10,060 nucleotides of DNA from a virus. Its lineage: Duplodnaviria > Heunggongvirae > Uroviricota > Caudoviricetes. This document shows, piece after piece, positions 4,735 through 7,148 of this stretch; position 1 is the first letter of the stretch; each line of letters opens with the position of its first letter. The stretch lies in the IMG/VR virus record IMGVR_UViG_2695420540_000013; one strand, given 5' to 3'. A program made the position numbers and the translations under genes. The notes under the pieces were generated by a model, which was not told where the DNA came from, did no database searches, and worked only from the letters and a program-made list of their open reading frames with translations.

Positions 4735-6525
4735 CTATGCACATGATGGCATCCAGTCTTCTGAATCCTCTGTCAGGGTCACATTTGAACGCAAACCGTG
4801 CTTCGTTTTCCGTTTCATATACTCCCTGCCATATTCCGCCATTGCCCCCGGCATATCTTTACCGAAGCGCGTCAGTGTTACAGGTTTACCGAATCCGTGT
4901 GCCCTCATATATGCCAGATAGGCGTGATAAAGATACCTGCGCGGACTGAACGGAATAATTTCGGCATTACCCACTAACAGACCATCACACATTACCGACG
5001 ACATGAGATAGCCGCAGAAGTCCACCAGCGAATCGCCCTCGCGTTTTATCACCAGAGCTTCTTCTGATTTCTGCTGCTCATACAGCAGGCGTTTAGCTTC
5101 GTCCTGGTCAGAAAAACGAGTAAGCAGGTGGCGAATCACAACCGCCAGCTCTCCTTCTATTTTTTCTGCCAGCATGGGGTCGCGTTCGTTCTCCGGTACA
5201 ACTTCCGAAAAATTGAATATCACCCGACGACGTGAGATCCCCCCGCTGCGGTCACTGAATGACATGGCGTTATTGTTAACCGCCAGCACTACTGCCGGAA
5301 TACGCGTTGAGTAGGGGGCTTTGTGTTTCGGGTCAATTGCCACCTTGTCACCGCCTGTAATGGCCTTAATCCCTGCCCCATCACCAGCGTAGCGGGTCAT
5401 ATCCGGCATGATAATCAGCGAAAAGCCAACCACTAACGCGCGTTCCCTTGCATCTTCCAGCGCCTTCATGCTTGCCGATACTGTGTTGGCCTTACCCGCC
5501 AGCATGGTGCAAATCTCCGCCATCACGCTTTTACCACTTCCCCCTGGACCTGTTACCTCAATGAATAACTGCCAGTCGTACCGGTTCGCCAGCACCATGA
5601 ATAATACAGCCAGTACGCGATCCGCCTTGCGGTCATTCTCAGCCACCGAACGGCGTAACCACTTCCAGAAATTCGGCGCATGTGTTGCCAGCGTTTCCCC
5701 CTCTGCTGGTGGGCTGAAAGGTAATTCACTGGCAATTAACAACCAGTCGTTTTTGTTATGCTCCCGAAAATTACCTGTTCTGGTATCAAATACCCCGTTA
5801 CTGAATCCAATCAGGTTACGGGCTGTATTCCCCATTACAGGCAAACTTAACTTCATGGTATCGACCGCCGATTTAATGGCGTTCTGCGAATAGCTGATCT
5901 CCGCATCAATGAAAATCTGTGCCATAGCTCGCTGTAATTCTTTATCCTGTACTGGCTCCCATACAACGCCGTTGTAATGGTGAACAGTGTCAGAGTCAGC
6001 ATGAATCGCCAGTTCACCGCCATAATGTGCCAGGAGAACTTCGCCGCGTTGACTTGCTCCCATCTGGTTAAGCGCCAGTGATGAAGCGTTATCGTCTTTT
6101 ACCCGCTCTTTTTTCTTTACAGGCAGTTCAACTACCTTTTTCTTTTCCGCCTGCTCTGCCCGTTCACGTTCCAGATATTCGCGCCAGTTCTCCCGTTTCT
6201 GGCTGTGCATTCCTTCAGGGTAATAATCAGCATCCCTGACACCTGCCACTGCCAGTTTCTGCCCGATGGTATTAACAAGCCCCGGACGCAATAACCCCGC
6301 CTGATAGAGACGCACGCGATAGCGTCCGTCCGGTACGATTTGCAGGTTGTCCAGTTCGGCAAGTTGTTGCTCTCCAAGCCAGACAGGTGGCACGTTATCG
6401 CCAGCCAGTCGCCCGTCCTGTTCCTGCCACTGTTTCGCATGTGCCCACGCATCACTACCCGCAAAAATGATGACTTCCGTCATTTTGTCACGCGGCTGGT
6501 GTTTTAAATTTGGCGCTTTTTTCAT
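4735..6525 (-). CDS. P4 alpha-like replication primase/helicase (N-terminal primase region, Walker-A P-loop NTPase), 596 aa from the preferred start
   Basis: Walker A GPGGSGKS; overall resemblance to the phage/plasmid primase P4-family C-terminal domain. Preferred ATG at 6523..6525 has a GGAGAGA Shine-Dalgarno and forms an ATGA overlap with the upstream gene stop; the ORF track's longer start (6540) and a shorter one (6483) lack an RBS. Confidence 0.88.
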   Translation of the reverse strand: MKKAPNLKHQPRDKMTEVIIFAGSDAWAHAKQWQEQDGRLAGDNVPPVWLGEQQLAELDNLQIVPDGRYRVRLYQAGLLRPGLVNTIGQKLAVAGVRDADYYPEGMHSQKRENWREYLERERAEQAEKKKVVELPVKKKERVKDDNASSLALNQMGASQRGEVLLAHYGGELAIHADSDTVHHYNGVVWEPVQDKELQRAMAQIFIDAEISYSQNAIKSAVDTMKLSLPVMGNTARNLIGFSNGVFDTRTGNFREHNKNDWLLIASELPFSPPAEGETLATHAPNFWKWLRRSVAENDRKADRVLAVLFMVLANRYDWQLFIEVTGPGGSGKSVMAEICTMLAGKANTVSASMKALEDARERALVVGFSLIIMPDMTRYAGDGAGIKAITGGDKVAIDPKHKAPYSTRIPAVVLAVNNNAMSFSDRSGGISRRRVIFNFSEVVPENERDPMLAEKIEGELAVVIRHLLTRFSDQDEAKRLLYEQQKSEEALVIKREGDSLVDFCGYLMSSVMCDGLLVGNAEIIPFSPRRYLYHAYLAYMRAHGFGKPVTLTRFGKDMPGAMAEYGREYMKRKTKHGLRSNVTLTEDSEDWMPSCA

Positions 6526-6821
6526 TTCTGCTCTCTCCACGCGGCAATCATGTTTTTTAGTTCCTGTAGTTTTTTATCAACATCCATACATGACACATGG
6601 TTATTTCTGGAAAGCGGGATTTCCCGACTGAATCTGCTAATAAAGATCTCCACGTTCAGCGAACTAAGAAATGAATAGCCATCACGGATAAAATACACAC
6701 GGTCAAACATCAGTTCTTTTACCGTTACTCTGTTACCGTTCTTATCCAGATAAATAGCGCCGGGGATAATTTGGGGGTGTGCATAACCGCTGGCAGTCAA
6801 GCCAGATAAATACGTTCTCAT
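6522..6821 (-). CDS. Hypothetical protein, 99 aa (second gene of a low-GC two-gene cassette)
   Basis: ATG at 6819..6821 with GGGGA upstream; stop overlaps the primase start. Sampled 60-nt windows here give about 35-43% GC versus about 52% in the primase gene. No family recognised. Confidence 0.55.
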   Translation of the reverse strand: MRTYLSGLTASGYAHPQIIPGAIYLDKNGNRVTVKELMFDRVYFIRDGYSFLSSLNVEIFISRFSREIPLSRNNHVSCMDVDKKLQELKNMIAAWREQK

Positions 6822-6827
6822 GATTAT

Positions 6828-7148
6828 TTATCCCCGATTTGAATCAGTATTCGCTTTCTTTATAGCATTTAATGCATCTGTGGCATTTTCAATGGTGCAC
6901 CGTAACGAAATATCAAAATGTCCAAGCATTGCCAGTAACAAACCGATATTACCCATATCAATGCGCATGGCCTTTTCGTCATAGTCCTCATTTTCTGACG
7001 CATGCCACATCAGGCTACCAATTGACGCAACAGCCATTGATATATTGTCAGTAGCCCCATCCGCAGCGGAATAAACCTTTTTAGCAATATCATGCTCACA
7101 GTTAAAATGCGGATTAATCAGGTACTGGTAATTTGACATATCAGGCAT
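6828..7148 (-). CDS. Hypothetical acidic protein, 106 aa (first gene of the low-GC two-gene cassette)
   Basis: ATG at 7146..7148 with an AGGGGGGG Shine-Dalgarno 4 nt upstream. Rich in Asp/Glu; a sampled 60-nt window gives about 37% GC. Only 6 nt separate it from the next gene. No family recognised. Confidence 0.55.
   Translation of the reverse strand: MPDMSNYQYLINPHFNCEHDIAKKVYSAADGATDNISMAVASIGSLMWHASENEDYDEKAMRIDMGNIGLLLAMLGHFDISLRCTIENATDALNAIKKANTDSNRG

Follow-up and report, generated by a model that had tools for sequence, protein, structure and literature searches.

A low-GC gene pair in the early replication operon of an Escherichia coli phage satellite

The IMG/VR virus record IMGVR_UViG_2695420540_000013 (Caudoviricetes; 10,060 nt, the whole of which is hereafter called the window) contains two small, tightly linked open reading frames (ORFs) whose G+C (GC) content is lower than that of the genes on either side. 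An initial annotation, made from the sequence alone, interpreted these ORFs as a two-gene cassette acquired into a variable slot of a satellite's replication operon, possibly encoding anti-phage or helper-interference cargo or a toxin–antitoxin-like pair. The question raised by this locus is whether the pair is acquired cargo or a regular part of the operon in which it is found. Here, we found that the window is an E. coli-type Gram-negative phage-inducible chromosomal island (PICI), that both ORFs lie inside its early/replication operon, and that the second of them belongs to a gene family, DUF4222, that sits immediately before PICI replicases of every type. The explanation we favour, to which we assign a probability of about 0.7, is that the interval (positions 6522–7148) is the middle of a predicted helper-induced early operon of an enterobacterial PICI, and not a foreign cassette.

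The gene pair and its operon

Both ORFs were located on the minus strand at the positions given by the initial annotation, separated by 6 nt (6822–6827). The upstream ORF encodes an acidic protein of 106 amino acids (aa) (6828–7148, from ATG at 7148 to TAA at 6828; isoelectric point (pI), 4.78), and the downstream ORF encodes a basic protein of 99 aa (6522–6821, from ATG at 6821 to TGA at 6522; pI, 9.41), confirming the contrast in charge that had been described. Their low GC content was also reproduced, with values of 40.5 and 41.7%, respectively, compared with 55.8–57.4% in the upstream gene and 51.2% in the downstream primase gene, and the 627-nt interval fell within the lowest 5.7% of stretches of the same size. 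The only other GC troughs in the window were found around the origin (approximately 4333–5025) and in the alpA/int intergenic region (approximately 8087–9100).

Both ORFs are genuine genes, not chance ORFs, as judged from their matches to profile families, their intact length, and the ratio of nonsynonymous to synonymous substitution rates (dN/dS). All eight sampled alleles of each gene were intact in length, and the mean pairwise dN/dS among the eight alleles was 0.19 for the 106-aa gene and 0.26 for the 99-aa gene (0.52 for the icd-like gene upstream). Both members of the pair are thus under purifying selection.

The pair is physically joined to the genes on both sides. The stop codon of the 99-aa ORF overlaps the ATG of the primase gene by 4 nt (ATGA, 6525–6522), in agreement with the coupling proposed by the initial annotation, and the start of the 106-aa ORF overlaps the stop codon of the gene upstream by 8 nt (ATGCCTGA); the same overlaps are annotated by RefSeq in identical or near-identical loci. 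This upstream gene (7141–7344, minus strand; the extent of the ORF is also given as 7141–7434) had been described as a small leader ORF, which was correct as to its position but not as to its identity: the product is an Icd-like protein matching NCBIfam NF033153 (3.4e-19) and phrog_6196 (1.2e-51), and an identical sequence is annotated by RefSeq in E. coli SMS-3-5. A run of seven G residues (approximately 7152–7158) is present in the last codons of the Icd-like gene, just before the 8-nt overlap with the start of the 106-aa gene. Single read-through fusions of the Icd-like and 106-aa proteins exist in databases, namely P0001 (171 aa; 36 member sequences, from Logan assemblies only) and P0057 (324 aa), and a 1-nt change in the G-run, whether by true slippage or through a homopolymer sequencing error, would fit them.

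Upstream of the icd-like gene, a consensus scan identified a sigma-70-like promoter candidate on the minus strand (TTGACG-17-TAACAT, 7452–7480), which is likely the start of an operon comprising the icd-like, 106-aa, DUF4222, and primase genes. The consensus scan detected no minus-strand promoter-like or terminator-like sites within 6522–7148. The order of the predicted operon would be the promoter, the icd-like gene, the 106-aa gene, the DUF4222 gene, and the primase/replicase gene, followed by the iteron origin, and because the four genes are joined by 8-, 6-, and 4-nt junctions, they would be produced together.

The replicase gene (4735–6525, minus strand) encodes a D5/P4-type primase-helicase ('Pri-Rep') with matches to Pfam D5_N, DUF5906, and Pox_D5 and to phrog_864. 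Its N-terminal region of approximately 120 aa (approximately 6166–6525) is common to replicases of the D5/P4 primase, RepA/AAA_25 helicase, and DUF927 types (compared with L002:7726–9126, L006:4003–6126, and L007:2710–4833, where the L numbers denote individual loci), and it had no match in Pfam. Consistent with this sharing, the junction at 6400–6530 of the window showed 88.5% identity to the RepA/DUF4222 junction of O157. The N-terminal region looks like a common module and a recombination joint, and it may be a partner of the DUF4222 protein. Downstream of the primase gene, the replication origin (4471–4695) consists of ten iterons of GGTGAACAGT (≤1 mismatch) in both orientations, located in an intergenic region with a GC content of 32.8%. 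In the window as a whole, 11 iteron matches were found versus 0.53 expected by chance, and one further exact copy of GGTGAACAGT lies within the primase gene (5979–5988). This iteron layout is as described for E. coli PICI origins in passages of PMC6092414.

The identity of the whole element is in line with this arrangement. The window has an integrase, AlpA, a pri-rep gene followed by an iteron origin, and a small size, and it has no lysis or tail genes, as is characteristic of PICIs; the initial annotation had regarded the element as a phage satellite, and the integrase, AlpA, Icd-like protein, primase, single-stranded DNA-binding protein (SSB), capsid fusion, and iteron origin all agree with that view. 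In the closest complete-genome matches, the element is located between clpS and cspD, and the homologous elements at this site are approximately 10 kb long, one copy being a 10.79-kb circular record. The 1,101 nt around the gene pair were 100% identical to E. coli SMS-3-5, in which this segment is part of a different PICI with a different morphogenesis module.

Distribution of the DUF4222 and 106-aa families

The initial annotation had recognised no match for either protein, which did not hold for the 99-aa protein. This protein matched Pfam DUF4222 (PF13973) with a score of 60 bits (gathering cut-off, 27; E value, 1.6e-16; residues 17–67) and phrog_285 (2.1e-21), and an identical protein is named 'DUF4222 domain-containing protein' by RefSeq. 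Its predicted fold comprises an SH3/Tudor/KOW-like barrel and a C-terminal helix. The characterised member of the family is RgdR (ECs1581, O157:H7 O-island 51), which is also a basic protein of 99 aa (PMC3378721, PMC10877973). RgdR is a pleiotropic regulator that activates LEE1 in the enterocyte effacement locus (LEE), represses motility, and binds DNA non-specifically; its RGD motif is tied to the activation of the type III secretion system, and residue 20 matters for its activity (PMC3378721). The window protein shares the N-terminal SGLTASG motif and a conserved core with the RgdR-type protein of O157 O-island 51 (OI-51), with 34% identity over all 99 residues, but has P20-G21-A22 in place of RGD at residues 20–22. 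By sequence, it is a member of the DUF4222 family and, by the RGD criterion, not a functional equivalent of RgdR.

The genomic setting of the two proteins is also similar. In an O157:H7 genome, the element at the OI-51 position (CP-933C) carries an integrase gene, a helix-turn-helix regulator, an Icd-like gene, three small ORFs, DUF4222, and a RepA helicase gene, in that order, so that the RgdR gene is found at the same position, after an icd-like gene and small ORFs and with a 4-nt overlap before the replicase. The two alleles differ in that the RgdR gene (GC content, 51%) follows three small ORFs and precedes a RepA helicase gene, whereas the window gene (41.7%) follows the 106-aa gene and precedes a primase gene.

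The 4-nt overlap between the DUF4222 stop codon and the replicase start codon was present in 12 of the 12 inspected E. coli loci, regardless of replicase type. The replicase behind DUF4222 belonged to the primase family in L001, L003, L004, L020, L021, and L024, was a 'primase-like DNA-binding domain' protein in L022, a RepA helicase in L002 and L005, and a DUF927 protein in L006, L007, and L023, while summary rows add DUF5906 to the replicases paired with DUF4222. Because DUF4222 directly precedes the replicase in all inspected loci, whatever the replicase, the 99-aa gene occupies a fixed place just ahead of the PICI replicase gene, of whichever type, and is not cargo. Comparison with related islands therefore revealed this gene to be a conserved core component, which contradicts its description as part of an acquired accessory module. 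The family is common: among 5,426 complete E. coli genomes, the RgdR-type allele occurred at 1,952 places in 1,459 genomes and the window-type allele at 513 places in 474 genomes (471 full-length), amounting to approximately 2,465 places for DUF4222. In one genome per species, 32 pattern matches to DUF4222 relatives were obtained, of which none was confirmed. Passages of PMC6092414 state that RgdR was encoded by all E. coli PICIs analysed there and describe its homologues as PICI accessory genes.

For the 106-aa protein, the lack of a recognisable match was largely upheld. It matched only phrog_15327 (2e-71, residues 1–106 of 106), a family that carries no annotation and has no function assigned in the catalogue. 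Searches of the protein against Pfam, NCBIfam, and PADLOC gave no match, and the family profile retrieved nothing from PDB sequences or Pfam. When 1.84 billion cluster representatives were searched exhaustively with HMMER, only 21 clusters were returned, which, beyond close E. coli copies, include approximately ten proteins of approximately 100 aa with 23–40% identity. The named members of the family derive from E. coli, other Enterobacteriaceae, Citrobacter, Superficieibacter, Erwinia, Winslowiella, and Klebsiella. Neither tblastn of the two proteins nor blastn of the region yielded a match in 50,697 phage records; since no copy exists in these deposited phage genomes, phrog_15327 is in practice a satellite family, and for the same reason a phage origin could not be shown.

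The 106-aa protein is predicted to form a two-helix hairpin (helices at residues 19–51 and 58–104; mean predicted local distance difference test score, 81), with the conserved residues G44, M47, A50, Y56, D64, and G69 clustering about the predicted hairpin tip. A Foldseek search of the model against PDB and BFVD found only non-significant helical hairpins (EsxB, UvsY, and spectrin; E > 0.6). Two possible interpretations of this shape were considered and rejected: a resemblance to WXG100 proteins was regarded as generic, and a membrane hairpin was dismissed by eye, as the hydrophobic stretches are short and the relatives have charged residues there.

Distant relatives of the 106-aa protein were found in comparable operons. 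At 25–40% identity, they occur after an Icd-like gene, and zero to three genes separate them from a replicase (AAA_25 or DUF927) or from a large gene without annotation. In L008 and L009, the relative overlaps the preceding Icd-like gene by 8 nt and is followed by a 122-aa gene and then an AAA_25 helicase gene, in elements that also have an integrase and a protease–capsid fusion. L012 encodes a 256-aa protein with an Icd-like C-terminus, a 63-aa protein, the relative, two small proteins, and a DUF927 replicase. In L016, an Icd-like gene and a pair of small genes precede the relative, behind which come three genes (65, 96, and 203 aa) and then a large one (at least 444 aa) for which no family is recorded. 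In L018, where DUF4222 is absent, the relative directly overlaps the start of a DUF927 replicase gene, and in L017 it is located in a prophage-like early region. Because the same operon position is kept in distant satellites, the 106-aa family has long resided between the icd-like and replicase genes of Enterobacterales satellites and is not tied to DUF4222. This conservation of position is also contrary to the idea of an acquired module.

The proposal of a variable slot proved correct for one gene of the pair. Between the icd-like gene and DUF4222, the slot is occupied by the 106-aa gene in the window and in L001, L003, L004, L006, and L021–L024, whereas L002 and L005 have three small ORFs there and L007 has four; no relationship between these alternative occupants and the 106-aa family was detected using hhalign. 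Thus, the 106-aa gene is replaced by three or four unrelated small ORFs in other E. coli PICIs, whereas the 99-aa gene is a fixture.

The notion of a two-gene cassette was likewise accurate only in part. The two genes travel together in E. coli, the 106-aa gene being counted in 474 genomes at 513 places, exactly as often as the window-type DUF4222 allele, and the pair also occurs in Citrobacter freundii, as inferred from consecutive protein accession numbers (66 and 85% identity for the 106-aa and DUF4222 proteins, respectively). However, they are separable, because each family also occurs alone and there is at least one natural recombinant, in which a 106-aa gene of 94% identity is followed by an RgdR-type DUF4222 (crossover after approximately codon 12). 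In the variant element L020 (NZ_AP045179.1, 3218899–3225985), two tandem Icd-like genes (65 and 154 aa) are present, and the annotation of the 106-aa gene, which is linked to an RgdR-type DUF4222, begins at an internal start (97 aa). This element adjoins IS1 and a Mu-like transposase. Overall, the module was observed in combination with replicases of three types and with several different morphogenesis and integrase modules, while its flanks, namely the icd-like gene and the N-terminal domain of approximately 120 aa of the replicase, were conserved. The co-inheritance of the pair as one recombination module can be explained by its location between the icd-like gene and the shared replicase N-domain, and our reading is that the genes are inherited together mainly because they are sited between these two recombination anchors. 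Co-adaptation of the 106-aa and DUF4222 proteins is possible.

The composition of other genes bears on whether low GC content marks a recent arrival. In all four loci checked (L008, L012, L016, and L018), the 106-aa family gene was 6–15 GC points below the downstream replicase-type gene, other ORFs found in the slot ranged from 38 to 54%, the RgdR-type allele had 51%, and alpA had 41.8%. Since the genes of the four satellite loci and alpA are likewise low, low GC content is a common trait of small early genes in these elements and is not, by itself, a sign of recent acquisition. Recent horizontal acquisition was accordingly judged unnecessary as its cause, given that the family was low in four of four loci and alpA equally so.

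Possible roles of the pair

If the interval is the middle of a helper-induced operon, both small proteins would be adaptors or regulators co-produced with the replicase on satellite induction. The barrel and basic helix of the DUF4222 protein may modulate transcription or the replicase via protein contacts and non-specific DNA binding, in the manner of RgdR at LEE1 and motility genes, and the acidic 106-aa hairpin might use its conserved tip to bind a host or helper protein. Such a takeover role of the 106-aa protein would be comparable, by position and not by homology, to those of epsilon, ORF151, and ORF106 of satellite P4.

In the left operon of P4, epsilon, ORF151, and ORF106 (DUF5375) are arranged with 8-nt overlaps just before the D5/P4-type alpha primase, and epsilon brings about helper derepression, so that one small P4 gene is known to manipulate the helper. 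The likeness of the window to this operon is positional only. The hhalign probabilities were <1% for the 106-aa family against epsilon, ORF151, and ORF106 and for DUF4222 against ORF106, and the window proteins had no match to Pfam 'Derepression' (PF25738) or DUF5375. Annotation names in this satellite region are inconsistent, because the P4 ORF described as 'cI gene product / transcriptional repressor' (L025, 8168–8584) corresponds to Pfam Ash (PF10554), while P4 epsilon matches the separate 'Derepression' family. The phrog label 'transcriptional repressor' is attached to the window Icd-like protein, and no relationship was found between this protein and the P4 'cI' ORF.

A second layout resembling that of the window is the Icd-like/primase locus of ECOR61, which gives cell death upon expression of a phage accessory gene (Silas et al., preprint, 10.1101/2023.04.06.535777). 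There, an Icd-like gene, overlapping small genes, and a DNA primase gene act together; the ECOR61 Icd-like protein differs in having a long N-terminal extension, and the small genes implicated encode approximately 62–64 aa, compared with 99 and 106 aa in the window.

Several points weigh against the operon explanation. The function of the 106-aa protein is without informative homology, the fold matches of its hairpin all being non-significant, and with 34% identity to RgdR and PGA instead of RGD, the window DUF4222 allele may not share the RgdR phenotypes. The fixed position of DUF4222 is based on the 12 inspected loci and the summary rows, which are not a complete census. The window DUF4222 allele is approximately 9 GC points below the RgdR-type allele, which is left unexplained beyond the general tendency of small mobile-element genes. 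In addition, according to passages of PMC6092414, the autonomous replication of EcCICFT073 was tested with a construct containing only rep, under an arabinose-inducible promoter, and ori; if the reported replication of this construct holds, replication does not require DUF4222.

That construct bears directly on the possibility that DUF4222, either by itself or jointly with the 106-aa protein, serves as a replicase cofactor acting on the N-domain, the iteron origin, or helicase loading. Such a role would fit the ATGA overlap with the replicase, which is invariant whatever the catalytic core, the common N-terminal domain of approximately 120 aa, the basic charge of the 99-aa protein together with the non-specific DNA binding of RgdR (PMC3378721), and the overlap of the 106-aa relative with the DUF927 replicase start in L018. 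We nevertheless regard it as rather doubtful, because rep and ori alone made up the EcCICFT073 construct, no DUF4222 was detectable before the replicase in L008, L012, and L018, and alleles and replicases show no obvious matching, with one DUF4222 allele being found with both primase and DUF927 and DUF927 being found with two DUF4222 allele types. The variability and low GC content of the slot, the cell death conferred by the related ECOR61 locus type (10.1101/2023.04.06.535777), and the absence of both proteins from the 50,697 phage records searched would be in keeping with helper-interference or abortive-infection cargo, in which the host population would be protected by a pair that senses or blocks a phage protein. 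This view, which had been put forward in the initial annotation, received no support from PADLOC, Pfam, or NCBIfam (neither protein matched PADLOC-DB 2.0 at E ≤ 1). Both proteins are very small and lack enzymatic domains, the suppressor hits in ECOR61 fall in the Icd-like gene and two genes of approximately 62–64 aa rather than in genes of 106 or 99 aa, and, unlike swappable defence cargo, each family keeps its place in the operon among divergent satellites; hence, we consider it improbable.

A role directed at the host seems no less improbable. In this case, the 99-aa protein would act like RgdR on virulence and motility genes as a 'moron', with the 106-aa protein as its modulator; its membership in DUF4222, the activation of LEE1 and repression of motility by RgdR (PMC3378721), and the description of RgdR homologues as PICI accessory genes in passages of PMC6092414 would be compatible with such an activity. 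However, identity to RgdR is 34%, with PGA at residues 20–22, of which residue 20 matters for RgdR activity, DUF4222 is common in strains without LEE, the operon is expected to be silent until helper induction, and the conserved site beside the replicase suggests a role centred on the satellite. The toxin–antitoxin-like addiction pair suggested initially, for which the opposite charges, tight linkage, and co-inheritance in approximately 99% of E. coli occurrences might be cited, is very improbable. No toxin–antitoxin family was matched in Pfam, NCBIfam, or PADLOC, no promoter belonging to the pair was found and the genes on either side are coupled to it, approximately 1,459 genomes have DUF4222 but lack the 106-aa gene, the 106-aa family occurs without DUF4222 in L008, L012, and L018, and the natural recombinant combines the 106-aa gene with an RgdR-type DUF4222. 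Finally, it is conceivable but unlikely that the icd-to-replicase interval is a diversification slot for helper-specific takeover or phage-sensing proteins, with the 106-aa protein and the low-GC DUF4222 forming a co-adapted unit that recognises a helper or invading-phage protein and is coupled to replication or to Icd-mediated growth arrest. By analogy with the logic of P4 epsilon and the ECOR61 locus, such a unit might serve as a satellite trigger or an abortive-infection module, which is equally unlikely.

Much of the locus is explained by what was already known, as the satellite type and the RgdR/DUF4222 family had been described and the 106-aa family had been catalogued as a PHROG. The comparison adds a useful map, in which each type of PICI replicase has DUF4222 coupled to its start, an N-domain is common to the replicases, and small-gene sets alternate in the slot after the icd-like gene. 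Together, these features define a compact early operon in which the small proteins have no assigned role in the life of the satellite. Work on RgdR has until now treated it as a virulence regulator (PMC3378721), and the invariant coupling of its family to replication suggests that it primarily serves the satellite. An answer to what DUF4222 does would clarify why pathogenic E. coli carry several copies.

Other features of the element

In passages of PMC6092414 (Fillol-Salom et al. 2018), EcCICFT073-type PICIs have the same integrase gene, alpA, operon ending in pri-rep, and iteron origin as the window, and these passages do not mention the 106-aa family or other genes between alpA and pri-rep. 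The window element differs from them in its site between clpS and cspD and in its ClpP-protease/capsid fusion.

Next to cspD in homologous loci, the corresponding gene is annotated as a tyrosine-type recombinase/integrase; in the window, this tyrosine integrase is encoded by an ORF at 8822–10060 on the minus strand. An AlpA-family regulator (8193–8489, minus strand; Pfam Phage_AlpA, 4.8e-16) is also encoded, and AlpA is named as the master activator of Gram-negative PICIs, inducing PICI operons, in passages of PMC6092414 and PMC11773190. Profile searches identified a divergent YlcI/YnfO gene (7542–7847) on the strand opposite to a 272-aa mechanical ORF (7364–8182, minus strand). The latter is probably spurious, as it overlaps the YlcI/YnfO gene and has no RefSeq counterpart in homologous loci. 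No RNA family was found in an Rfam scan of the window.

On the other side of the origin, the SSB gene (3756–4178) had a GC content of 58.6%. The ORFs called across 3499–3749 are artefacts, since two N runs (157 and 92 bases) lie between a 75-aa gene and the SSB gene. Neither the window nor the homologous clpS–cspD elements contained a portal or terminase gene. The window encodes a fusion of a ClpP-like prohead protease with a major capsid protein of the HK97 type (1180–3060, minus strand; 626 aa), and such a fusion unaccompanied by portal and terminase genes is an unusual morphogenesis complement for a PICI of approximately 10 kb.

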